A stretch of 46,150 nucleotides of DNA from a virus (Duplodnaviria; Heunggongvirae; Uroviricota; Caudoviricetes). Of this stretch, positions 1 to 33,075 are shown one piece after another. The position numbers and the translations under genes are program-made. Within the stretch, counting starts at the first letter, position 1; each line of letters begins with the position of its first letter. The DNA lies in the IMG/VR virus record IMGVR_UViG_2695420763_000017, positions 1 to 46,150 of that record; one strand, written 5' to 3'. Below the pieces are notes generated by a model. That model saw only the letters and a program-made list of their open reading frames with translations. It did not search any database and was not told the DNA's origin.

Positions 1-246
1 CTGATGTGTGTGCAGGATGGTCGTACTCACAAACAAATCTGCGAGATGTACAGCCGCGTCAGCCGCGATCCGTTCTGGTGCCGTAACGTGCTCAGCCCGT
101 CGAAGCTGCGGGAAAAATGGGATGAGCTTTCCCTGCGCTTATCGCCGTCCGTCAGCACGTACACAGAAAAACGCGAAGACCCGTACTTCAAAGCCAGTTA
201 CGACAACGTGGACTACAGCCAGATCCCGGCAGGATTCAGGGGGTGA
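1..246 (+). CDS. hypothetical phage protein, 3' fragment (gene begins upstream of window)
   Basis: Open frame from window edge to stop at 244-246; product not recognised; sits just upstream of the nin-like block. Confidence 0.35.
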   Translation: MMCVQDGRTHKQICEMYSRVSRDPFWCRNVLSPSKLREKWDELSLRLSPSVSTYTEKREDPYFKASYDNVDYSQIPAGFRG

Positions 247-248
247 TC

Positions 249-737
249 ATGAGTCTTTTGAATGAAGTTCAGAAATACATTGAAGCCCATCCGGGGTGTA
301 CTTCCGGAGACATTGCGGATGCTTTTGCAGGTTACTCACGGCAGCGCGTTCTGCAGTCAGCAAGCAAGTTACGTCAGAGTGGTCGTGTGGCTCACCGTTG
401 TGAAGGGGATACACGCAGACATTTCCCGCGCCTGACTGAGAGAGCGCAGGAGGCGGAACCGCAACCAGTTCGTGAAACCAGACCTGTGCGCAATTTCTAT
501 GTCGGCACTAACGACCCGCGGGAGATTTTGTGCCTGACCCGCCAGGCGGAAGAACTGGAGTCCAGGGGCTTATACCGTCGTGCTGCAACGGTGTGGATGG
601 CGGCATTCCGTGAAAGCCACTCCCAGCAAGAGCGAAACAATTTTCTTGCGCGTCGTGAGCGGTGCTTACGGAAAAGCAGCAAGCGCGCTGCATCGGGTGA
701 TGAGTGGTATCTGTCAGGGAATTACGTGGGGGCTTAA
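249..737 (+). CDS. PerC/Pch-like domain protein (putative transcriptional regulator)
   Basis: ATG 249 with AGGGGG 6 nt upstream; C-terminal half reads AEELESRGLYRRAATVWMAAF...RRERCL, matching the PerC-family signature as I recall it; stop overlaps next start (TAATG). Confidence 0.6.
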   Translation: MSLLNEVQKYIEAHPGCTSGDIADAFAGYSRQRVLQSASKLRQSGRVAHRCEGDTRRHFPRLTERAQEAEPQPVRETRPVRNFYVGTNDPREILCLTRQAEELESRGLYRRAATVWMAAFRESHSQQERNNFLARRERCLRKSSKRAASGDEWYLSGNYVGA

Positions 738-1063
738 TGACGACGTTAACTCAATGCCAGCAGCAGGTGCTGGATATGCTGATTTCTTATCAGAAAGAAC
801 GTGGCTTCCCGCCAACCAATCAGGAGGTGGCAACCATGCTGGGATACCGTTCAGTGAATGCAGCGGTGGAGCATCTTCGCGCACTGGAGAAAAAAGGCGT
901 CATCACGATAAAGCGTGGCGTGGCCCGGGGCATCACGCTTCATACCGCGGTGAAGGACGACGACAGCGAGGCGGTCGGGATTATCCGCTCACTGCTTGCC
1001 GGTGAGGAAAACGCAAGGCTGCGTGCAACCCACTGGTTACATGAGAGGGGCCTGAAAGTATGA
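737..1063 (+). CDS. LexA N-terminal DNA-binding-domain-like protein (no peptidase domain)
   Basis: QQQVLDMLISYQKERGFPPTNQEVATMLGYRSVNAAVEHLRALEKKGVI closely resembles the LexA winged-HTH; product is only 108 aa so the S24 peptidase domain is absent. Confidence 0.65.
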   Translation: MTTLTQCQQQVLDMLISYQKERGFPPTNQEVATMLGYRSVNAAVEHLRALEKKGVITIKRGVARGITLHTAVKDDDSEAVGIIRSLLAGEENARLRATHWLHERGLKV

Positions 1064-1449
1064 AGCTGATCCTGCCTTTTCCGCCCAGCGTGAACACGTA
1101 CTGGCGACACCCCAACAAAGGGGCGTTTGCAGGTAAGAGCCTGATAAGCGCGGCGGGGCGCAAATTCCAGAGCGCGGCGTGTGCAGCAATAGTTGAGCAG
1201 TTACGTCGTCTGCCAAAACCAACGTCGGCACCTGCTTCAGTGGAGATCGTGTTGTTTCCTCCGGATAACCGGATCCGCGATCTGGACAACTATAACAAGG
1301 CGCTGTTTGACGCCCTGACCCACGCGGGTGTGTGGGAAGACGACAGTCAGGTGAAAAGAATGCTGGTTGAGTGGGGACCGGTTATCCCGAAAGGGAAGGT
1401 CGAGATCACTATCAGTAAGTTCGAGAAAACGGCGGGTGCAGCCGCCTGA
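1060..1449 (+). CDS. rusA: RusA-family Holliday junction resolvase
   Basis: N-terminal LPFPPSVNTYWR and RDLDNYNKALFDALTHAGVWEDDSQV match RusA motifs; start overlaps upstream stop (ATGA). Confidence 0.85.
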   Translation: MKLILPFPPSVNTYWRHPNKGAFAGKSLISAAGRKFQSAACAAIVEQLRRLPKPTSAPASVEIVLFPPDNRIRDLDNYNKALFDALTHAGVWEDDSQVKRMLVEWGPVIPKGKVEITISKFEKTAGAAA

Positions 1450-1468
1450 TTAAGAGGAGAAACGAAGT

Positions 1469-2278
1469 ATGAATAATCTGATGGTCATTGATGGTATTGA
1501 AGTTCGTCGTGATGCTTATGGGCGTTACAGTCTGAACGATCTGCATCGCGCAGCAGTAGCATCTGGTGCAAATGCCAGAACCAAGGAGCCAGGAAAGTTT
1601 CTTTCCAGCCAACAAACTGTTGAGCTTGTTCATGAATTGACCAACACCCAGAATTTGGGTGTTGACCCGGTGAGTGTGATTCATGGGGGAAATGAACGGG
1701 GAACGTATGTCTGCAAGGAACTGGTGTATGCCTATGCAATGTGGATCAGCCCGTCATTCCATCTGAAGGTGATCCGTACTTTCGACATGGTAACCAGCGC
1801 ACCGGAAAAATTATCCGGACAGGCTGCTGACAAGATGCAGGCTGGTGTGATTCTGCTGGACTTTATGCGCCGGGAATTAAACCTGTCTAACTCTTCAGTG
1901 CTTGGTGCCTGTCAGAAACTCCAGGAGGCTGTTGGCTTACCGAATCTGGCACCGCGCTATGCCATTGATGCTCCTGCTGATGCACACGATGGCTCAAGTC
2001 GCCCGACACTGTCACTGAGTGCACTGCTGAAACAGTATGGTATCCGCCTGACGGCTAATCAGGCATATCACCAGATGGTGAAACTGGGGATCGTCGAGCA
2101 GCGCGAACGATACAGCCGTACCGCGATTAACAACATCAAAAAATTCTGGTCGCTGACAGCGAAAGGTTGCATGTTCGGCAAGAACATCACCAGTCCCGCA
2201 AATCCGCGCGAGACGCAGCCGCATTTCTTCGAATCCCGATTCCCTGAGCTGTTAAAGCTGCTCGATACCGTTCATTGA
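1469..2278 (+). CDS. KilA-N domain protein
   Basis: AGGAG RBS then ATG 1469; N-terminus IDGIEVRRDAYGRYSLNDLHRAA fits the KilA-N consensus. Confidence 0.75.
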   Translation: MNNLMVIDGIEVRRDAYGRYSLNDLHRAAVASGANARTKEPGKFLSSQQTVELVHELTNTQNLGVDPVSVIHGGNERGTYVCKELVYAYAMWISPSFHLKVIRTFDMVTSAPEKLSGQAADKMQAGVILLDFMRRELNLSNSSVLGACQKLQEAVGLPNLAPRYAIDAPADAHDGSSRPTLSLSALLKQYGIRLTANQAYHQMVKLGIVEQRERYSRTAINNIKKFWSLTAKGCMFGKNITSPANPRETQPHFFESRFPELLKLLDTVH

Positions 2279-2279
2279 G

Positions 2280-3281
2280 GTGACCGTGAGAGCACTACTG
2301 ACCCCTGAAATTGCCCCGCGTATGGGGATCGTATTGTTCAGGCCAGGTTCAGAGCTGATGCCCCTGTTTATGCAGGGGCGTGTCCTGCTGGAGCCTGAGC
2401 CGGAGCGTTATTCATCTTTCGCCAGTGGTGCCGTTCCGGCGGCATCACAACCGCTGGCGGATGATCCTGCCGTTCGGGCCGTGTTCCGCAATGAGGCAGT
2501 GATCCGTCGTGCTGGTGGCGTGGAATGTCTTGAAAGCTGGTTACTTCGTGAAAAAGGCTGCCAGTGGCCTCATTCCGACTGGCACAGCGAGAACATGACC
2601 ACAATGCGGCACGCGCCGGGCGCAATCCGTCTGTGCTGGCACTGCGATAACCAGTTGCGCGATCAGTTCACGGAACGGCTGGAATCAATGGCAACGGATA
2701 ACTGTGCCCGCTGGGTGTTATCTGTTGTGCGCCGTGATCTCGGTTTTGATGATAGTCACGTTGTGACAATGCCGGAACTGTGCTGGTGGCTGGTTCGTAA
2801 TGACCTGGCGGATGCCTTACCGGAAAGTGCAGCCCGTAAGGCACTGAGATTACCGAAGCCTGTTGTGCCGTCTGTCACCCGGGAAAGTGACCTTGTGCCT
2901 TCGGTTCCTGCCACCAGCATCATCCAGGATAAAGCGAAAAAGGTGCTGGCGCTGAAAGTGGATCCGGAGTCGCCGGAGTCTTTTATGTTACGCCCAAAAC
3001 GTCGCCGCTGGGTTAATGAAAAGTACACGCGCTGGGTTAAGACACAGCCGTGTGCATGTTGTGGAAAGCCTGCTGATGATCCCCACCACCTGATAGGTCA
3101 CGGTCAGGGTGGAATGGGAACAAAAGCGCATGACCTCTTTGTGTTGCCTTTGTGCAGAAAGCATCACGACGAGCTGCATGCGGATACCGTGGCATTTGAA
3201 GAGATGTATGGCTCCCAGCTGGAGCTGATATTTCGTTTTATCGATCGTGCGCTGGCGATCGGCGTAATTACGACAGCTTAA
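2280..3281 (+). CDS. DUF968-like lambdoid protein with C-terminal HNH-like Cys/His motif
   Basis: C-terminus CACCGKPADDPHHLIGHG...PLCRKHHDELH; position between nin genes and Q is typical; start GTG 2280 or 2286. Confidence 0.7.
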   Translation: MTVRALLTPEIAPRMGIVLFRPGSELMPLFMQGRVLLEPEPERYSSFASGAVPAASQPLADDPAVRAVFRNEAVIRRAGGVECLESWLLREKGCQWPHSDWHSENMTTMRHAPGAIRLCWHCDNQLRDQFTERLESMATDNCARWVLSVVRRDLGFDDSHVVTMPELCWWLVRNDLADALPESAARKALRLPKPVVPSVTRESDLVPSVPATSIIQDKAKKVLALKVDPESPESFMLRPKRRRWVNEKYTRWVKTQPCACCGKPADDPHHLIGHGQGGMGTKAHDLFVLPLCRKHHDELHADTVAFEEMYGSQLELIFRFIDRALAIGVITTA

Positions 3282-3302
3282 GTGTATGGAGCGCTGAGAA
3301 GT

Positions 3303-3992
3303 ATGAATCAACAAGACTTGAATTTTGTCAGAATAGAATTACGTCGTGCGCTGTTTGACTTCTCTGGGGGGACAAAAGGGCAGCTTGAGGCTTTCACTGA
3401 ACACCCACCAGCAGACAAAAATGCCACTCCACGCCGTGGAATTCATCTTGTCGAACTCGAAGGTGATAAGGGACCACGCTTTGTTAACTCGCTTTCCGCG
3501 CCATTGTACGTGCAAGAAACACGTAGCCGCCCCAGGCCAATGCCGCCGATAAAAGATGTAGAATTTGAGTCCGCGCCGTGGCGTAGGGCAGTGTCCGCGC
3601 TTAGTGGATACCAGCAGGCTTGGTTGCGGTACTGTTACGGTTTTGACCTTAACTATACGCACCAGGTGATGATGTGTGAATACGTCTGGAAGGCTTATCA
3701 GAAATGCTTGGGTGAAAACTCACTTCAGGAGCGCGTAGTAAAAAAACTAATAGGCCTAGTATGGCTTGCAGGACAGGAAATTGCTGCAACCCGAAACAAT
3801 GAAACCTATAAAGACTACGCTGGTGCGGCGCTGGCCCGTATGGTTAGCGTTGACCGTTCGACATGGTTGCGCGTCTATTCAGGCCACTGGGCTGGGTTAA
3901 AGGCCGCTTTTACCCAGCTTGATGAGTCTGCGCTGGCCATGGCTCTTGAATACTATGAGGATGAAGAAGCTCTCAAAGTGGGAGAAATATGA
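3303..3992 (+). CDS. late-gene antiterminator Q-like protein
   Basis: Position directly upstream of a promoter-like site and a strong terminator, followed by lysis genes; sequence resembles the phage antitermination Q family as I recall it (not verified); alternative GTG start at 3282. Confidence 0.55.
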   Translation: MNQQDLNFVRIELRRALFDFSGGTKGQLEAFTEHPPADKNATPRRGIHLVELEGDKGPRFVNSLSAPLYVQETRSRPRPMPPIKDVEFESAPWRRAVSALSGYQQAWLRYCYGFDLNYTHQVMMCEYVWKAYQKCLGENSLQERVVKKLIGLVWLAGQEIAATRNNETYKDYAGAALARMVSVDRSTWLRVYSGHWAGLKAAFTQLDESALAMALEYYEDEEALKVGEI

Positions 3993-4022
3993 CGTAAATT
4001 TCACTATCTCCTTCAAACGCGC

Positions 4023-4051
4023 TTGCAAAATACAACAAAATAAGCCATATT
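4023..4051 (+). promoter_or_regulatory. putative late promoter (PR'-like)
   Basis: TTGCAA (4023-4028), 17-nt spacer, CATATT (4046-4051), about 35 nt upstream of the terminator hairpin, as expected for a Q-modified late promoter. Confidence 0.3.
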
Positions 4052-4085
4052 GGAAGCATATTTGATATGTTGCCAAAGTTTTATA

Positions 4086-4110
4086 AACCCGCCGACGAGC
4101 GGGTTTTTTG
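4086..4110 (+). terminator. intrinsic terminator (tR'-like)
   Basis: AACCCGC-CGACGA-GCGGGTT hairpin followed by TTTTTT. Confidence 0.7.
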
Positions 4111-4185
4111 ATATGCGACATAACCTATAACATTTTTTATAAAATAAAATATAATTGCTTTACCATTATCCTGTGAGTTGAGCAA

Positions 4186-4971
4186 ATGTATATATTTGAA
4201 TTGACCAAACCTGGCAACTGGCTTGAAAGTGAAGACAAAGAGTGGTCTTGGAAAATAGAACGGCTTTTGGACCATCTTGAATTTGCATTTTATGAGGCTA
4301 ATGTTGCATTAAATTTATTTATGCAGCAGCAAAACAATCAAATAGAACAACAAGGGGTTTCGCAATTGCAATGGGAAAAAGAAATGCAAGAACGAAGAAC
4401 CATCGAAACACTAGTTCGTGAGGAGTTAGGTTTATCCCCTTTTGAGAATCCTGAAAACATACAATTTGAGGTGGACGCGAGGTTTAAACGAGAAAAGTGG
4501 AGTTCTGGTGAAATTCCACGTAGCCACAAACATTGTGTGATTTTTATTTATGCAAAATCTTTTCTTTATTCTCTTGATACTATTGATAAATTTATAAAGG
4601 TTATTTCGAATGAACCTTATGCTCCTGAGTCGATAAAAGCCCTACACGATCAGATAGGTAAAGATTTTCCTGATCTCAGAGGGGTTAGGAATTCAACTCA
4701 ACACCTCGAAGATAGGGCTCGAGGGCTTGGCGCAGGGAGAGAACCGAAGCCTTTGAATCTCCAGCCTATAAGTAATACCTTCATAAATGCACCGCAAGGT
4801 GCTTTGATATTAAATAATCTGAATGGCACCAAATTCGGGTCAACTATGTCTGATGGTCACTATGGTGAAGTGGACATTTCACCTGAATCGTTATCAAAAA
4901 TGCAAAGTATTGTTCAGGGCGTACTTGACTCGTTTAAGTGGGTTGGTAATCAGCAACACTTACCAAGTTAA
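4186..4971 (+). CDS. hypothetical moron protein with HEPN-like R-x4-H motif
   Basis: 261-aa AT-rich ORF with its own TATAAT (4150-4155), bracketed by two terminators; motif R168-NSTQ-H173; product otherwise unrecognised. Confidence 0.7.
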   Translation: MYIFELTKPGNWLESEDKEWSWKIERLLDHLEFAFYEANVALNLFMQQQNNQIEQQGVSQLQWEKEMQERRTIETLVREELGLSPFENPENIQFEVDARFKREKWSSGEIPRSHKHCVIFIYAKSFLYSLDTIDKFIKVISNEPYAPESIKALHDQIGKDFPDLRGVRNSTQHLEDRARGLGAGREPKPLNLQPISNTFINAPQGALILNNLNGTKFGSTMSDGHYGEVDISPESLSKMQSIVQGVLDSFKWVGNQQHLPS

Positions 4972-4993
4972 CTAAACTTAATTATTCATATTA

Positions 4994-5020
4994 AGGCTGC
5001 CATATGGCGGCCTTTTTATT
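4994..5020 (+). terminator. intrinsic terminator
   Basis: AGGCTGCC-ATAT-GGCGGCCT hairpin followed by TTTTTATT. Confidence 0.65.
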
Positions 5021-5064
5021 CCCTTCACTTTTGAGAGGATTCACAGCAATTAAGAGGGGGCTAA

Positions 5065-5451
5065 ATGTCCGATCCGATTTCCGGCACAGGGTTAGCTGCT
5101 GGAGTCCTGACAGGCGCTAGTGTTTATGGACTGCTGACCGGAACTGATTACGGTGTTGTATTTGGCGCATTTGCAGGGGCTGTATTCTACATCGCAACAG
5201 CAGCAGATCTGAGTTTATCGCGTCGACTGGCATATTTTATCGTGTCGTATATTGCCGGAATCCTTTGCTCTGGGTTGGTTGGCTCCAAGCTGGCAAACTT
5301 GACCGGATACAGTGATAAACCTCTGGATGCTATTGGTGCCGTAATCGTCTCTGCTTTAGCCGTTAAAATCCTGACGTTTCTGAATAACCAGGATATCGGT
5401 TCGCTGGTGGCGCTTATAACGCGCCGGGGAGGTTCAGGTGGAGCTAAATGA
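5065..5451 (+). CDS. holin-like membrane protein
   Basis: Strong RBS AGAGGGGG; 128 aa with several Gly/Ala-rich hydrophobic helices; first gene of the lysis cassette. Confidence 0.65.
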   Translation: MSDPISGTGLAAGVLTGASVYGLLTGTDYGVVFGAFAGAVFYIATAADLSLSRRLAYFIVSYIAGILCSGLVGSKLANLTGYSDKPLDAIGAVIVSALAVKILTFLNNQDIGSLVALITRRGGSGGAK

Positions 5452-5719
5452 CCCGACAGCAACTATAAATGCGCTGTTATGTGCTTGTGTTGTTATTACT
5501 CTGATGTTTTATCGTCGTGGTGATTCGCGGCATCGTCCTTGGGTTTCACGTTTAGCCTGGCTGATTACTGTTACATACAGTGCTGTTCCGTTGGCCTATC
5601 TCTGTGGGATTTATCCCCATTCCTCATGGCCCATTATCGTGGCGAATACTATTTTTCTTTCCGTGCTGGTGGCCGTCAGAGGCAACGTTGCACGTCTGGT
5701 TGATCATCTGAGGCACTAA
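5438..5719 (+). CDS. holin/antiholin-like small membrane protein
   Basis: 93 aa, two to three TM helices, charged C-terminus; directly upstream of the endolysin, start overlapping it. Confidence 0.6.
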   Translation: MELNDPTATINALLCACVVITLMFYRRGDSRHRPWVSRLAWLITVTYSAVPLAYLCGIYPHSSWPIIVANTIFLSVLVAVRGNVARLVDHLRH

Positions 5720-6336
5720 TGAACCAACAATTATTTCAAAAGGCGGCTGGTATTAGCGCCGGGCTGGCTGCGCGCTGGTTTCCGCACATTGATGCTGCAA
5801 TGAAAGAGTTTGGAATCACAGCAGTTAACGATCAGGCCATGTTCATTGCACAAGTTGGGCATGAATCTGCTGGTTTTACCTCGCTGGTGGAAAGCTTCAA
5901 CTACTCGGTAGACGGGCTGAAGAAAACCTTTAGTAAACGCCTGACGCCTTATCAGTGTGAAATGCTGGGGCGTGTCGATGGTAATCAGGTAGCCCACCAG
6001 CCGCAAATAGCCAATCTGGTTTATGGTGACCGCATGGGGAATAACAGCCAGGGTGACGGCTGGAAATATCGCGGTCGTGGCCTGCTTCAAATCACCGGCC
6101 GCGAGAACTACGCCAAATGCGGTGCGGCGCTGAAGTTGGATCTGATCAGCACACCAGAGTTGCTGACACAGGAGAAACATGCAGCCCGTTCTGCTGCATG
6201 GTATTTCACATTACGTGGTTGTCTGATGTATTCAGGTGATGTTGTCCGTGTAACGCAGATCATCAACGGTGGCCAGAATGGACTGGCTGACAGAAATAGT
6301 CGTTATAACAAAGCGCGGGCGGCGTTGCTGGTATGA
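5719..6336 (+). CDS. endolysin, glycoside hydrolase family 19 (chitinase-like lysozyme)
   Basis: Motifs [27 protein letters not shown] and RVTQIINGG are typical of GH19 phage lysozymes. Confidence 0.85.
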
Positions 6337-6869
6337 CAGCGGTCTTTGCTTTTGTTCAGGCGCGGTGGAAAACAATCATTGTTTTGCTGATGTTGGCTGG
6401 TGCATTTCTTGCCGGGAACATCTGGAGTGAGCGGGGCTGGCAAAAGAAGTGGGCTGACCACAATAGCATGGAATCTTCACAGGAAGCGAACGCGCAGACT
6501 GCCGCACGCTGGATTGAACAAGGGCGCATAATTGCCCGTGATGAGGCTGTAAAAGATGCACAAGCACAAGCCGCTAAATCTGCTGCCACTGCTGCTGGCC
6601 TGTCTGCCACTGTTAGCCAGTTGCGTACCGAAGCAACAAAGCTTGCCGCACGCCTGGACGCCGCAAAGCACACCGCTGATCTTGCCGCTGCCGTCCGAAG
6701 CAAAACAACCGACGCCGACGCCGGAATGTTCGCCGACATGCTCGGAGATATTGCAGCAGAAGCTAAACGTTATGCTGGAATCGCTGACGAACGCTACACC
6801 GCCGGGATGACGTGTGAACGTATTTACGACTCGTTGAGAGAGTCAAATAACGCTATCCCCCACAATTGA
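6333..6869 (+). CDS. Rz: i-spanin (Rz-like)
   Basis: N-terminal TM helix then Ala/Gln-rich coiled-coil periplasmic domain; immediately after the endolysin. Confidence 0.75.
6556..6810 (+). CDS. Rz1: o-spanin lipoprotein (Rz1-like), embedded in Rz in the +1 frame
   Basis: ATG 6556; signal peptide with lipobox LLAC/LASC; proline-rich mature part; wholly nested in Rz in another frame. Confidence 0.65.
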
Positions 6870-6935
6870 TTTTTTATCATATTCGAACGACTATGAAGGG
6901 TGTAAACAATTATAATCCAGTGATGAATTTTTCAA

Positions 6936-7211
6936 ATGTCAAAGCAAGGATATGCAGTGAGTGGTCATAGTGATGGTTTAGCAGATATTTTGAGCATTGT
7001 AATTGTATTAGCAGTGGAACATTGGATTATCGCATCTCTCATAGTTGGTTTGATTATGTATCTAGTGGGGGCGAGCATAAACGAAAATGCTCAGACAAAT
7101 GCCGGTGCCATTGCATCGGGAATCATAGGGGTATGTGGTCAATTTATTTTTGGTTTTGGCGTTCTGGCTAGCATTATTGGGATTGTTAAATTCATTTGGA
7201 CCCACACCTGA
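6936..7211 (+). CDS. small hydrophobic membrane protein (moron)
   Basis: AT-rich 91-aa ORF with two or three TM helices; no clear SD at 6936, alternative GTG 6957. Confidence 0.45.
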   Translation: MSKQGYAVSGHSDGLADILSIVIVLAVEHWIIASLIVGLIMYLVGASINENAQTNAGAIASGIIGVCGQFIFGFGVLASIIGIVKFIWTHT

Positions 7212-7275
7212 CAGCATCACTTTAGTCAATCATAGCCTCGCAATAGCGGGGCTTTTTAACAACTGAGGTATGAGC

Positions 7276-7473
7276 ATGACAGTAGTTCTTACAGCTAAGC
7301 AGATTGAAGACCTAGCAGCATTCGCGAAAGAAGATGGTCAGCCCCAATACACCATCACCACTGGTACAATCCCGGAATTCGAAGCGGATGATGGCGAGAT
7401 TATCCCTGAATACACAGGGCTGATCGCTTACTCAGAGTCACTTGAGCACGGTGTATTGCAACTCGACGATTAG
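7276..7473 (+). CDS. small acidic hypothetical protein
   Basis: GAGG RBS 7 nt upstream of ATG 7276 (alternative ATG 7270); 65 aa, acidic. Confidence 0.45.
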   Translation: MTVVLTAKQIEDLAAFAKEDGQPQYTITTGTIPEFEADDGEIIPEYTGLIAYSESLEHGVLQLDD

Positions 7474-7536
7474 TGGCATTCAGCAGGCATTCATTAAGTG
7501 TCTGCGATAATGCTATACGTTTTTTGGGGAGTGAAT

Positions 7537-7887
7537 ATGCCACCGCGCACACCAAAGGCTTGCCGTGTTCGCGGCTGTCGCAACACCACAACAGACCCAT
7601 CTGGCTACTGTGAAAATCACAAAGGTGAAGGCTGGAAGTCCTACAAGCCTGGTCAATCACGGCAGCAGCGAGGATACGGAACAAAGTGGGAAGTCATCCG
7701 GGAGCGGATACTTAAGCGCGACAAAGGGCTGTGTCAGAACCATCTACGGCAGGCGATAGTGAAGCAGGCGTCCTGCGTGGACCACATCAAGGCGAAGGCC
7801 CACGGCGGTACTGATGAAGACAGCAACCTTGAAAGCCTGTGCTGGTCGTGTCACGCAGCGAAGACCGCGCGTGAGCGGCTCAAGTGA
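7537..7887 (+). CDS. HNH endonuclease (terminase-associated)
   Basis: CRVRGC...CENH...CVDHIKAKAHGGTDEDSNLESLCWSCH; directly upstream of cos/TerS as in HK97-like phages. Confidence 0.85.
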   Translation: MPPRTPKACRVRGCRNTTTDPSGYCENHKGEGWKSYKPGQSRQQRGYGTKWEVIRERILKRDKGLCQNHLRQAIVKQASCVDHIKAKAHGGTDEDSNLESLCWSCHAAKTARERLK

Positions 7888-7889
7888 TA

Positions 7890-8010
7890 ATTAATGTCAT
7901 CATCAGACTGGGGAGGGGGAGGTCAAATCTCTGCGACCGCGCGCCTTCCGGACTGCCCGCCCCATCGTTTTTTTATACCCGCGAAAAATGAAATTTAACC
8001 AGGAGTGCCG
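7890..8010. other. putative cos/packaging-site region
   Basis: GC-rich block (GGGGAGGGGGAGG...CGACCGCGCGCC...CCCGCCCC) between AT-rich flanks, located between the HNH and TerS genes where cos lies in HK97-type phages; positional inference only. Confidence 0.3.
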
Positions 8011-8013
8011 CAT

Positions 8014-8508
8014 ATGGCTGGAACGGCGGGGCGTTCCGGGCGTCGCCCCAAGCCAACGGCGCGCAAGGCGCTGGCCGGAAACCCCGGCAAGCGAGCCCTG
8101 AACAAAGATGAACCTGTTTTTACGCCCATCAAAGGTGTTGAGCCACCAGAGTGGTTCGCTGAAGAAGATCTCCCTCTCGCCACGATCATGTGGCAACTGA
8201 CAACCAAAGAACTCTGCGGTCAGGGCCTGCTGTGCGTGACTGACCTGGCGGTACTTGAGCGGTGGTGCGTGGCCTATGAGTTCTGGCGACGTGCCGTGAA
8301 AAATATTGCCATACAGGGCAACACCATCACCGGTGCAATGGGCGGCAGGGTCAAAAATCCGGAGCTGACCGCCAAAAAAGAACAGGAGTCCGAGATGAGC
8401 AGCACGGGGGCAATGCTCGGACTCGACCCCAGCAGCCGCCAGCGTCTGATTGGCCTGGCGGGGCAGAAGAAAGCCACTAACCCGTTTCTGAAAATTATCG
8501 AATCATGA
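8014..8508 (+). CDS. terminase small subunit (P27-family-like)
   Basis: AGGAG RBS 8 nt upstream of ATG 8014; basic N-terminus; stop overlaps TerL start (ATGA). Confidence 0.8.
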
Positions 8509-10238
8509 GCCGGAAATCTTACCCCAACGTAAATGCTGCAAATCAGTATGCCCGGGATGTCGTGCGCGGAAAGATTGTTGCCTGCCAGTTTGTGATTCAG
8601 GCCTGCCAGCGCCATCTTGATGACCTGATGGCGGAAAAAAGTAAGTCGTTTCGTTACCGCTTCGACAAGGACCTGGCTGAACGGGCCGCGAAATTTATTC
8701 AGCTGTTGCCGCACACCAAGGGGGAGTGGGCATTCAAACGGATGCCCATCACGCTGGAGCCGTGGCAGCTCTTTGTGATCTGCTGTGCGTTTGGCTGGGT
8801 CAATAAAGGCACCCGGTTGCGCCGCTTCCGGGAGGTGTACACCGAAATCCCCCGTAAGAACGGCAAATCAGCAATCTCTGCCGGTGTTGCCCTGTATTGT
8901 TTTGCCTGTGATAACGAGTTTGGCGCGGAAGTGTATTCCGGTGCCACGACAGAGAAACAGGCGTGGGAAGTCTTTCGCCCGGCGCGACTGATGTGTAAAC
9001 GCACACCCATGCTGACGGAAGCGTTCGGGATTGAGGTTAACGCCTCAAACATGAACCGTCCGGAGGATGGCGCGCGGTTTGAACCGCTGATCGGCAACCC
9101 AGGTGATGGTTCATCACCCCACTGTGCCGTGGTTGATGAATATCACGAGCATGCCACCGATGCGCTTTATACCACAATGCTTACCGGGATGGGGGCGCGA
9201 CGTCAGCCACTGATGTGGGCCATCACCACCGCCGGGTACAACATTGAGGGGCCGTGCTACGACAAGCGGCGGGAAGTCATCGAGATGCTCAACGGCTCGG
9301 TGCCTAACGATGAACTGTTCGGGATCATCTATACCGTTGATGAAGGTGACGACTGGACTGACCCGCAGGTGCTGGAAAAAGCCAATCCAAATATTGGCGT
9401 GTCGGTTTATCGCGAATTTTTGTTAAGTCAGCAGCAGCGTGCGAAAAATAACGCCCGTCTGGCAAACGTCTTTAAAACAAAACACCTCAATATCTGGGTG
9501 TCGGCGCGTTCGGCGTATTTCAACCTGGTGAGCTGGCAGAGCTGCGAGGATAAATCACTGACCCTTGAGCAGTTCGAGGGGCAGCCGTGCATTCTGGCCT
9601 TTGACCTGGCTCGTAAGCTGGATATGAACAGCATGGCGCGACTTTATACCCGCGAGATTGACGGTAAAACGCATTACTACAGTGTGGCCCCGCGCTTCTG
9701 GGTACCGTATGACACGGTGTACAGCGTCGAGAAAAATGAAGATAGACGGACAGCCGAACGCTTTCAGAAATGGGTGGAAATGGGCGTCCTGACCGTTACC
9801 GATGGTGCAGAGGTGGATTATCGCTACATCCTCGAGGAGGCCAAAGCGGCGAACAAAATCAGCCCGGTCAGTGAGTCACCCATCGACCCCTTCGGGGCGA
9901 CCGGGCTGTCACATGACCTTGCTGATGAAGATCTGAATCCCGTCACTATCGTCCAGAACTTCGCCAATATGTCCGATCCGATGAAAGAGCTGGAAGCAGC
10001 GATTGAATCGGGACGCTTTCATCATGACGGCAATCCCATCATGACCTGGTGTATCGGCAATGTGGTCGGCAAAAACATGCCAGGTAACGATGATTTAGTG
10101 AAGCCCGTCAAGGAGCAGGCGGAAAACAAAATCGATGGTGCGGTTGCACTGATTATGACGATCGGTCGGGCAATGCTCAAAGAACCTGACGATTTCCTCT
10201 CATCTCTTGATCCGGACGATGATCTCTTAATTCTATGA
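8505..10238 (+). CDS. terminase large subunit
   Basis: 577 aa; ATPase-like N-terminal half (KNGKSAIS Walker A-like) and nuclease-like C-terminal half; conserved position. Confidence 0.95.
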
Positions 10239-10396
10239 AATCACTAATTGCTGATGTTATCGGGCTGGCTGGTTTTGGCCTGCTTACGTGCGGGGTTTAC
10301 CTGCAGTTTGGTATGGCTCCGGCTCTGATTTTGTCCGGTGCTTTACTGCTGGTGGGCGCACTGGCTATGGCCAGAAGGGGGACGCGTGCTGCTTGA
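10235..10396 (+). CDS. small membrane protein (53 aa)
   Basis: ATG 10235 overlaps the TerL stop; [53 protein letters not shown] gives two hydrophobic helices; below the ORF-track length cutoff. Confidence 0.3.
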
Positions 10397-11612
10397 TGCT
10401 CTGTTCAGAAGTAAATCACTGGAGAATCCTTCCACCCCGATAACCGGTGATGCCGTTGATACTGATGGGCTGTTCCGGGCAGACGTTTATGTCAGTCCTG
10501 AGACTGCGATGAAACTGGCTGCGGTGTATTCCTGTATCTATGTCCTGTCTTCCAGCCTTGCCCAGATGCCGTTGCATGTTATGCGCAGGCACAAGGGGAA
10601 GGTTGAACCCGCACGCGATCATCCGGCGTTTTATCTGGTTCATGATGAGCCCAATACCTGGCAAACCAGCTACAAATGGCGCGAACTGAAGCAACGTCAC
10701 ATCCTTGGCTGGGGGAATGGGTATACCTGGGTGAAACGTAATCGTCGCGGTGAAGTTATATCCCTGGATTGCTGTATGCCGTGGGAAACGACGCTGATGA
10801 ATACTGGTGGCCGATATACCTACGGTTTGTACAACGAATATGGGGCGTTTGCGATCAGTCCGGACGATATGATCCACATCCGTGCGCTGGGTAATAATCA
10901 GAAGATGGGGCTGAGTCCGATTATGCAACATGCCGAAACAATAGGCATGGGGATGAGCGGTCAGAAGTACACAGAAAGCTTCTTCAGCGGTAATGCCCGT
11001 CCGGCGGGGATAGTATCCGTTAAAAGCGGACTCAATAAGGAAAGCTGGGGCTGGCTTAAAGATCAGTGGCAGAAGGCATCGCAGGCGTTACGCCGCCAGG
11101 AAAACAAAACCATGCTGCTGCCAGCCGATCTGGATTACAAGGCACTGACTGTGTCGCCAGTTGACGCTCAGATCATTGACATGATGAAGCTGAACCGTTC
11201 AATGATCGCCGGTATTTTCAATATTCCTGCGCACATGATTAATGACCTCGAAAAAGCCACCTTCTCCAATATTTCTGCGCAGGCGATTCAGTTTGTCCGC
11301 TACACGATGATGCCGTGGGTGACGAACTGGGAGCAGGAGCTTAACCGTCGCTTGTTTACCCGCGCTGAGTTAGCCGCCGGGTATTACGTCAGGTTCAATC
11401 TGACGGGGCTTTTACGCGGAACTCCGCAGGAGCGCGCGCAATTCTATCACTTCGCTATTACCGATGGATGGATGAGCCGTAATGAGGCCCGCGCATTCGA
11501 GGATATGAATCCGGTTGAAGGGCTGGACGAGATGCTGGTAAGCGTGAATGCTGCTAACCTGGCAGGAGATTTTAAGCCCCCAAAAAACGATGAGGGAAAA
11601 ACCAATGAATGA
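10386..11612 (+). CDS. portal protein (HK97-type)
   Basis: About 410 aa following TerL; start ambiguous (GTG 10386 with GGGGGA RBS, or upstream 10338). Confidence 0.9.
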   Translation: MLLDALFRSKSLENPSTPITGDAVDTDGLFRADVYVSPETAMKLAAVYSCIYVLSSSLAQMPLHVMRRHKGKVEPARDHPAFYLVHDEPNTWQTSYKWRELKQRHILGWGNGYTWVKRNRRGEVISLDCCMPWETTLMNTGGRYTYGLYNEYGAFAISPDDMIHIRALGNNQKMGLSPIMQHAETIGMGMSGQKYTESFFSGNARPAGIVSVKSGLNKESWGWLKDQWQKASQALRRQENKTMLLPADLDYKALTVSPVDAQIIDMMKLNRSMIAGIFNIPAHMINDLEKATFSNISAQAIQFVRYTMMPWVTNWEQELNRRLFTRAELAAGYYVRFNLTGLLRGTPQERAQFYHFAITDGWMSRNEARAFEDMNPVEGLDEMLVSVNAANLAGDFKPPKNDEGKTNE

Positions 11613-12207
11613 CCGTGAAATCCGTTGTTACAGCGGTGAGGTGCGTGCTGAGAGGCATGACGATAACCCGGCGCACATTATCGGTTATGGATCGGTGTTT
11701 GACTGTCGTTCTGAGCTGATATTCGGTTCATTCCGCGAAATCATCCGGCCCGGCGCTTTTGACGATGTGCTTGGTGATGATGTACGCGCACTGTTTAACC
11801 ACGATCCTAATTTTATTCTTGGGCGTAGTGCAGCAGGCACGCTGAATCTTTCAGTTGATGAGCGCGGATTACGCTATGACATCCAGGCTCCGGAGACACA
11901 GACCATTCGTGATCTGGTGCTGGCCCCGATGCAACGTGGAGATATTAACCAGTCATCTTTCGCTTTCCGTGTCGCCCGTGACGGTGAGGAGTGGTATCAG
12001 GATGAGGACGGGGTTGTTATTCGCGAGATAACCCGCTTTTCCCGTCTGCTGGATGTCAGTCCTGTGACATATCCTGCCTATCAGGAGGCTGACTCGGCTG
12101 TTCGCTCCATGAAAGCATGGCAGGAGGCGCGCAACAGCGGCGCGCTACAGAAAGCCATTAATCAACGTATGGCGCGTGAACGCGTCCTGACCCTTCTTAA
12201 CGCGTAA
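11605..12207 (+). CDS. prohead protease (HK97-type, S78-like)
   Basis: GAGGG RBS then ATG 11605 overlapping the portal stop; position between portal and capsid. Confidence 0.85.
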   Translation: MNDREIRCYSGEVRAERHDDNPAHIIGYGSVFDCRSELIFGSFREIIRPGAFDDVLGDDVRALFNHDPNFILGRSAAGTLNLSVDERGLRYDIQAPETQTIRDLVLAPMQRGDINQSSFAFRVARDGEEWYQDEDGVVIREITRFSRLLDVSPVTYPAYQEADSAVRSMKAWQEARNSGALQKAINQRMARERVLTLLNA

Positions 12208-31732: not shown

Positions 31733-32947
31733 GTGAAACTCAATGCCCGTCAAATAGACACTGCCAAGCCAAAAGAGAAGGCTTACAAGCTGGCTGATGG
31801 TGGTGGTCTGTATCTCTTGGTAAAACCTAGTGGAGGAAAATATTGGCGCTTCAAGTATCGTGTAGCTGGTAAAGAGAAGCTGTTAGCACTAGGTGTGTAT
31901 CCTGAAGTTACCTTGGCTGATGCTCGTGCAAAACGTGAAGAAGCTAAAAGGGGTATCGCTGGGGGTATCGATCCGATGGAAGCGAAACGAGAGGAAAAGA
32001 TTGCCCGGGAAACGCAGTTAAACAACACCTTCAAAGATATTGCCCTTGAGTGGCACAGCAGCAAATTAAAAAAATGGTCTGCTGGTTATGCTTCAGACAT
32101 CCTCGAAGCCTTCAACAAAGATGTGTTCCCTTACATTGGCAAAAAACCAATCGCCGAAATCAAACTACTTGAACTGCTGAATGTGCTGCGGCGCATCGAG
32201 GGGCGCGGTGCTACCGAAAAAGCCAAAAAAGTGAGGCAGCGATGTGGGGAAGTTTTCCGCTATGCAATTGTCACTGGACGTGCTGAGTATAACCCTGCAC
32301 CGGATCTCACCAGCGCGATGCAAGGTCATGAATCTAATCATTATCCTTTCCTCACAGCCAAAGAATTACCTGATTTTTTCAAGGCATTGTCCAGTTACTC
32401 AGGAAGTGCATTGGTTGTTATGGCGGCTCGTTTACTGATTATCACCGGTTTGCGGACTGGCGAACTGCGCGGTGCATTATGGGATGAAATCGATCTCAAC
32501 AAGGCTATCTGGGAGATACCTGCTTCACGGATGAAAATGCGTCGCCCTCATGTAGTGCCTTTGTCTGAGCAGGCTCTTTCGCTTATTGGGCAGATTAAAG
32601 AACTAACTGGCAATTATCCGCTTATGTTTCCCGGCCGTAATGATCCAAGGAAAACAATGAGCGAGGCTAGCATAAACCAAGTATTTAAACGCATCGGCTA
32701 TAACGGAAAGGTTACTGGTCATGGCTTCCGGCACACTATGAGCACCATTTTGCATGAGCAGGGCTATAACACCGCGTGGATAGAGACACAGCTTGCGCAC
32801 GTCGATAAAAACTCAATTCGTGGCACATACAACCATGCGCAATATCTGGATGGGCGGCGGGAAATGCTTCAGTGGTACGCTGATTATATGGATTCGCTCG
32901 AGCATGGCGGAAATGTGGTGCATGGTGAGTTCGGAAAATGCGGGTGA
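31733..32947 (+). CDS. int: tyrosine integrase, P4 family
   Basis: GTG 31733 with GGAGG RBS; N-terminal arm-binding motif GGLYLLVKPSGGKYWRFKYR; catalytic region with HGFRHT and terminal tyrosine region; immediately downstream of the att core. Confidence 0.95.
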   Translation: MKLNARQIDTAKPKEKAYKLADGGGLYLLVKPSGGKYWRFKYRVAGKEKLLALGVYPEVTLADARAKREEAKRGIAGGIDPMEAKREEKIARETQLNNTFKDIALEWHSSKLKKWSAGYASDILEAFNKDVFPYIGKKPIAEIKLLELLNVLRRIEGRGATEKAKKVRQRCGEVFRYAIVTGRAEYNPAPDLTSAMQGHESNHYPFLTAKELPDFFKALSSYSGSALVVMAARLLIITGLRTGELRGALWDEIDLNKAIWEIPASRMKMRRPHVVPLSEQALSLIGQIKELTGNYPLMFPGRNDPRKTMSEASINQVFKRIGYNGKVTGHGFRHTMSTILHEQGYNTAWIETQLAHVDKNSIRGTYNHAQYLDGRREMLQWYADYMDSLEHGGNVVHGEFGKCG

Positions 32948-33075
32948 CTGGTTGAGTATACAGTAGTAGACTTTGAGCGACGAAAGAAAAGGCTGTGTCT
33001 AGGGTCGCTCCCGAAAATCCGTACACCTCGACGGACTGGTACAGCCACTACAGTAGAGGACGCTGAGGTGTGCGT

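Follow-up and report, generated by a model that had tools for sequence, protein, structure and literature searches.

A probable embedded spanin pair of the RzpQ/RzoQ family at the end of the lysis cassette of a mosaic Escherichia coli-type prophage

The described systems closest to the locus analyzed here are the rzpQ/rzoQ genes of the Qin prophage of Escherichia coli K-12 and gene 55 of phage N15, which were used for comparison together with Rz/Rz1 of phage lambda and PseT.3/PseT.2 of phage T4. Embedded spanins are delimited as a class by criteria attributed to Summer 2007 and Kongari 2018, i.e., an o-spanin gene that is fully enclosed by the i-spanin gene and read in another frame, an i-spanin that is a type II inner-membrane protein with one N-terminal TMD and a helical periplasmic domain, an o-spanin that is a small lipoprotein with a signal for signal peptidase II (SPII), a location in the lysis cassette by holin and endolysin, and two frames that are coding and under selection. 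For N15, both subunits are catalogued with the embedded architecture, and approximately 70% of the embedded o-spanins run from ~ 0.4–0.5 L to 0.9–1 L of the i-spanin gene (Kongari et al. 2018, PMC6139136). In lambda, the starts of Rz and Rz1 are 220 nt apart, so that Rz1 is likewise in the +1 frame, and its mature product measures 40 aa. The rzoQ gene is annotated in the reference K-12 genome following Summer et al. 2007. No experimental work on the RzpQ/RzoQ family came up in a search of the literature for rzoQ and DUF2514, the matches to rzoQ being unrelated strings.

We analyzed a spanin candidate at positions 6333–6869 of a viral stretch of DNA (46,150 nt in its whole length, hereafter the window), which is a mosaic E. 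coli-type prophage. The locus very probably encodes a genuine two-component spanin with embedded architecture, as the last unit of the lysis cassette in the prophage late operon. The features on which the description relies are the following (evidence in brackets):

3282–3992: Q antiterminator (PF06323)
4186–4971, + strand: low-GC open reading frame (ORF) without assigned function
5065–5451, + strand: holin-family gene 1, 128 aa, first in the lysis cassette (PF16931 Phage_holin_8, E = 9e−35; phrog_198 holin)
5438–5719, + strand: holin-family gene 2, 93 aa, 3TM type (Phage_holin_3_7, PF05449, E = 7e−20; phrog_217 holin)
5719–6336, + strand: endolysin, 205 aa, glycoside hydrolase family 19, GH19 (PF00182, E = 7e−8; phrog_181 endolysin, E = 9e−87)
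6333–6336, + strand: ATGA, in which the i-spanin start codon (6333) overlaps the endolysin stop (end 6336) (sequence)
6333–6869, + strand: i-spanin gene (RzpQ-like, DUF2514), 178 aa, ATG start (ORF list, Pfam, PHROG)
6543–6546, + strand: GAGG, Shine-Dalgarno-like site 9 nt 5′ of the o-spanin ATG (sequence)
6556–6810, + strand: o-spanin gene (RzoQ-like lipoprotein), 84 aa, ATG start, +1 frame (ORF list, PHROG)
6556–6621, + strand: predicted type II (lipoprotein) signal peptide, o-spanin residues 1–22 (sequence)
6613–6624, + strand: lipobox L-A-S-C of the o-spanin (sequence)
6622–6807, + strand: mature o-spanin, 62 aa (composition, invariant columns, AF2)
from 7498: HNH endonuclease, small terminase subunit, and further downstream ORFs

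The two holin-family genes stand in tandem with a 14-nt overlap, belong to different Pfam families and precede the GH19 endolysin gene, and holin and endolysin are both immediately upstream of the pair. The assignment of the endolysin is supported by a RefSeq record whose spanin gene is identical and in which the preceding gene is labeled “glycoside hydrolase family 19 protein”. The spanin pair is the closing unit of a complete lysis cassette (two holin-family genes and a GH19 endolysin) and completes it in the sense that all three envelope-disrupting functions are present in the prophage. The ATGA overlap between the endolysin stop and the i-spanin start allows translational coupling of the two genes. 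No promoter-like site was found by the promoter scan inside or just upstream of the spanin genes, which fits their expression from the late operon, while the tRNA scan and the Rfam search returned nothing in the spanin region.

Small ORFs were recorded on both sides of the cassette. The one between the Q antiterminator and the first holin gene (4186–4971, + strand, 261 aa, 33–40% GC) is flanked by terminator-like hairpins at 4085–4106 and 4993–5014 and matches phrog_5322 (unknown function), with no match in Pfam and PADLOC. Stx phages carry stx at this spot between the Q antiterminator and the holin, which is known as the classic position for morons. Directly 3′ of the spanin genes, a strongly hydrophobic ORF of 91 aa (6936–7211, + strand, ~ 38% GC) matches phrog_28582 (unknown function) and gave no match in Pfam, NCBIfam, and PADLOC; a membrane moron and an accessory gene for lysis are both possible identities. 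No defence-system match was obtained with PADLOC for these flanking small ORFs.

The outer gene was assigned to DUF2514 (Pfam PF10721, E = 4e−42) with a score of 144.4 bits (cut-off 26) over 161 of the 161 profile positions, and to phrog_312 “Rz-like spanin” with E = 1e−58. Its product has a hydropathy peak at residues ~ 14–32, read as the TMD, and strongly hydrophobic 19-residue windows occur only N-terminally. The AF2 model (single sequence, pLDDT 72) is composed of two helices (residues 2–122 and 127–174) with a break at 123–126, and hydropathy and AF2 together describe a type II inner-membrane protein with one N-terminal TMD and a helical periplasmic domain, as in the class definition above. 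The protein contains a single cysteine, Cys161, which is invariant in all 65 distinct genes of the comparison set (see below).

The inner ORF begins 223 nt into the outer gene, i.e., (6556 − 6333) mod 3 = 1, the +1 frame, and spans 0.42–0.89 L, which nearly fits the range given for most embedded spanins (PMC6139136). It lies wholly within the i-spanin gene in this alternative frame, both in the window and in all homologues, and 6556 is the only possible start, since an in-frame TAA is located upstream of the ATG (6550–6552). At the N-terminus of the product, a basic n-region is followed by a hydrophobic core and by the lipobox L-A-S-C (fitting [LVI][ASTVI][GAS]C) ending at Cys23, followed by Val and not Asp, which by sequence makes it a small lipoprotein with an SPII signal; Cys23 is invariant in both o-spanin alignments (A1 and A2). 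The mature part contains 12 Pro in its 62 aa (19%), all of them between mature residues 3 and 61. Invariant alignment columns were P40, L45–A49, Q51, C58, T61, and C62, with Cys58 and Cys62 forming a CxxxC motif. In the AF2 model (52-sequence alignment), a C-terminal helix at residues 62–80 was predicted with pLDDT 93–95 and confidence was low elsewhere, the signal helix being placed at residues 9–21 and the Pro-rich segment having no predicted secondary structure. The initial annotation had described a lipoprotein ORF with a lipobox and a proline-rich sequence, lying wholly inside an Rz-like gene in the +1 frame, and each of these points was borne out, from the frame and the nesting (6556–6810 inside 6333–6869) to the Rz-like character of the outer gene (DUF2514, phrog_312, N-terminal TMD, and helical body).

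In terms of family, the o-spanin matched phrog_11621 “Rz-like spanin” (E = 2e−6) and had 83 homologues in a large protein database, nearly all of 84 aa and with a precomputed PF28595 assignment, whose source names included “putative lipoprotein RzoQ”, “putative Rz1-like lipoprotein, Qin prophage”, and “gp55”. The phmmer matches, down to E = 2.6e−37, were to proteins with a PF28595 assignment, of which some bear the name RzoQ; PF28595 is missing from the Pfam copy used, so that the assignment applies to these homologues and the o-spanin of the window has no direct PF28595 score. No model in the Pfam and NCBIfam copies used matched the o-spanin meaningfully. Qin rzpQ/rzoQ and N15 gene 55 belong to the same families (PF10721 for the large subunit, PF28595/RzoQ for the homologues of the small one). 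Identity to the K-12 Qin and N15 copies is 61–62% for the i-spanin, while for the o-spanin it is, over the full 84 aa, 63% to the ORF within K-12 rzpQ and 62% to the ORF within N15 gene 55. All three loci have in common the +1 embedded position, an o-spanin of 84 aa with Cys23, Cys58, and Cys62, and a C-terminal Cys in the i-spanin, and the pair of the window differs as an allelic variant only, with a divergent N-terminal third of the i-spanin and with Leu in place of Gln at o-spanin position 41. The cassettes themselves are composed differently, with a GH19 endolysin and two holin-family genes in the window versus a lysozyme and a single holin in Qin and N15. At the DNA level, about 2,100 of the 5,426 complete E. 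coli genomes contained rzpQ of the Qin prophage with ~ 80% identity to the gene of the window, and DNA searches also grouped the latter with N15 gene 55. Judged from these matches, the pair is a member of an already known and catalogued spanin family, with a putative function in lysis.

Similarity to lambda was detected in organization and not in sequence. The BLASTP comparisons with lambda Rz (E = 1.8) and lambda Rz1 (E = 3.2) gave no similarity, and Pfam yielded no credible match besides DUF2514 and none to the lambda Rz/Rz1 families, so the pair falls outside the lambda sequence families and its likeness to them lies in architecture and inferred mechanism. Shared with lambda are a type II large subunit with a helical periplasmic domain, a Pro-rich lipoprotein as the small subunit, the position of the pair directly after the endolysin gene, and periplasmic Cys in both subunits. 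The differences concern both subunits. The mature o-spanin of the window is longer than lambda Rz1 (62 vs. 40 aa), and a C-terminal helix is predicted in it with confidence; it has two periplasmic Cys, whereas lambda Rz1 has one Cys and no helix. The i-spanin has one periplasmic Cys compared with two in lambda Rz. In being larger than lambda Rz1, with a predicted C-terminal helix and two periplasmic Cys, the o-spanin resembles T4 PseT.2 (PMC6139136), a likeness by description and not by sequence comparison. However, the T4 genes PseT.3/PseT.2 are separate while those of the window are embedded, and the T4 i-spanin is without periplasmic Cys, unlike the i-spanin of the window with its invariant Cys161. 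The embedded Rz/Rz1-type architecture proposed in the initial annotation holds with two refinements, namely that the family is RzpQ/RzoQ–N15 gp55 and not a sequence homologue of lambda Rz/Rz1, and that the o-spanin differs from lambda Rz1 in its greater length, predicted C-terminal helix, and CxxxC motif. The reading as a spanin pair gains support from the position after the endolysin in the lysis cassette and from selection on the inner frame.

Given the lack of detectable similarity to lambda Rz/Rz1, the mechanism is transferred by analogy, in the outline in which it is described for known spanins. The 84-aa product would be read from its own conserved ribosome site on the same mRNA as the i-spanin, be cut by signal peptidase II and lipidated at Cys23, and be sorted by Lol to the outer membrane, because the residue after Cys23 is Val and not Asp. 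The C-terminal part of the o-spanin would then bind the C-terminal part of the i-spanin, giving a periplasm-spanning complex through the peptidoglycan mesh, in which Cys161 of the i-spanin and Cys58 and Cys62 of the o-spanin probably form disulfide-linked homodimers. Once holin and endolysin had removed the peptidoglycan, the spanin complexes would be free to act and would complete lysis by disrupting the outer membrane, with its fusion to the inner membrane as the most likely way. We also considered whether RzoQ-type o-spanins could represent a mechanistically distinct subtype, with a lipid anchor, a Pro-rich tether of ~ 38 residues, the invariant CxxxC, and a predicted C-terminal helix of 19 residues. 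This helix would pack on the C-terminal i-spanin helix, a contact that Cys161 might lock, unlike the unstructured Pro-rich contact of lambda Rz1; this is a speculative and rather doubtful proposal.

Three other explanations of the locus were weighed against a functional spanin. The one that fares best, although still quite improbable, is that both genes are real but inactive relics of a defective prophage, like the K-12 Qin copy, with no role in lysis here. The same family is indeed carried by the cryptic Qin prophage of K-12, and a near-identical prophage with a DUF968 pseudogene is present in E. coli strain ECZP248, whose spanin gene is 100% identical to that of the window. The window is also a mosaic without an end-to-end match to a complete genome, as none in the complete-genome collection matches positions 1–12000 throughout. 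A further point in favor of decay is a substitution at a nearly invariant o-spanin position, as residue 41 is Leu in the window (CTG, 6676–6678) and Gln (CAG) in at least 90% of the homologues; the codon change is synonymous in the i-spanin frame (GCT for GCA, Ala115). The Leu41 allele, however, recurs in several independent contigs (L001, L004–L010, near-identical prophage copies), and in the window both spanin frames, the lysis cassette, the Q antiterminator, and the DUF968 ORF (333 aa) are intact, as are the genes further downstream, including those for terminase and portal; across 1469–8508, all of the reading frames inspected were intact.

It is less probable that the embedded lipoprotein is expressed for another role, such as lysogenic conversion or exclusion in the manner of Bor, Cor, or Llp. 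Such a role could be argued from the putative nature of the o-spanin function, from a sequence unrelated to lambda Rz1, and from the predicted C-terminal helix that sets it apart from this protein. Against it, in no homologue does the ORF lie outside the i-spanin gene, there is no promoter-like site of its own nearby and the location is the late lysis operon, while the size, the Pro-rich linker, the periplasmic Cys, and the relative position all fit the o-spanin pattern (PMC6139136). With obligate nesting and a late-operon position, a lipoprotein with another role is unlikely.

The third explanation, that the +1 ORF is a non-coding by-product of Ala-rich composition and only the DUF2514 protein is made, would be favored by the length of open frames in this gene and by the absence of the small ORF from PGAP annotations. 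In order to estimate what composition alone can produce, the outer gene was recoded in two ways (n = 20,000 each): synonymous codons were permuted, keeping the Rz protein and its codon usage (shuffles), or codons were redrawn from the codon usage of the window itself (redraws). The +1 frame stayed open for at least 85 codons in 13,767 of the shuffles (69%) and in 9,818 of the redraws (49%), and open runs of 120–145 codons occur in the antisense frames of the i-spanin gene. ORF length was rejected as evidence for a gene on these grounds, with 49–69% of recodings keeping a +1 run this long. In contrast, an embedded ORF with an ATG start, a signal peptide and a lipobox arose in only 60 of 20,000 shuffles and 5 of 20,000 redraws (0.03–0.3%). 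What marks the inner ORF as more than chance is consequently the lipoprotein signal, together with conservation, and not its length.

Conservation was assessed in 83 related genes from viral contigs, K-12 Qin, and N15, of which 65 were distinct at the DNA level, with i-spanin identities of 61–100%. The +1 run was exactly 85 codons long and in the same place in 59 of the 65 distinct genes and was never shorter, whereas the other four alternative frames, serving as controls, varied widely in length. The inner proteins comprised 52 distinct variants, all of them in the +1 frame, with an ATG start, Cys23, and a conserved length (52/52). The GAGG site was invariant in all 65 distinct genes. The embedded ORF was also present in 29 out of 29 further loci of other Enterobacterales (Citrobacter, Kluyvera, Klebsiella, Erwinia, Pantoea, Mixta, Izhakiella, and others). 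One of these, in Mixta tenebrionis (L100, 1177–1707), has the non-canonical lipobox L-T-N-C (Asn at − 1) and was missed by the lipobox filter, the ORF itself being present; either the variant is tolerated or this copy is inactive.

The synonymous divergence of the outer gene dropped 3- to 5-fold within the overlap (dS 0.16 vs. 0.49 upstream and 0.86 downstream; Mann–Whitney p = 1e−5 and p = 3e−7), while dN was similar (0.10 vs. 0.12). The sliding dS profile fell at approximately codons 61–72 and recovered at ~ 150–160, thus bracketing the inner ORF (codons 75–159) and its ribosome site. Suppression of this kind is, at the sequence level, the expected signature of two frames under selection, and regional divergence in mosaic phages could contribute to the profile. 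Taken with the invariant ORF boundaries and the GAGG site, it indicates that both frames are coding and under purifying selection. The +1 ORF as a by-product is very improbable, as the start, stop, Cys23, and GAGG are conserved across the 65 distinct genes and the 29 further loci and synonymous sites are suppressed exactly over the ORF, and a chance ORF is for practical purposes excluded by the conservation and dS tests.

An antisense ORF of 127 aa (6356–6739, − strand) was also considered as a gene and rejected, as the longest antisense runs of the homologues vary between 50 and 175 codons, and it looks like a compositional by-product of the Ala-rich gene.

Beyond correct annotation, the importance of the embedded spanin pair is small. 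Standard pipelines miss the embedded lipoprotein gene; in the three RefSeq records inspected (E. coli ECZP248, L001; an MG1655 assembly, L002; phage N15 NC_001901, L003), only a “DUF2514 domain-containing protein” was annotated by RefSeq/PGAP at the spanin locus, and the embedded ORF was unannotated in 3 out of 3. In Ala-rich coding sequence, the length of an ORF says little about whether it is an embedded gene; what proved informative in this case was the lipoprotein signal, together with the conservation of the ORF boundaries and the suppressed synonymous sites.

Two minor observations were made in the course of these comparisons. A relative of the o-spanin from Salmonella Typhimurium (P0074, 84 aa) matches at both ends, while its middle part (~ residues 29–65) reads like a different frame, so that the record may contain a sequencing error or the protein a compensated double frameshift. 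At 32992–33059 (+ strand) of the window, just after a 404-aa ORF (31733–32947), Rfam reported an int-alpA RNA with 45.5 bits (gathering score 35.8), so that the structural genes of the prophage may be followed downstream by a second integrative element.
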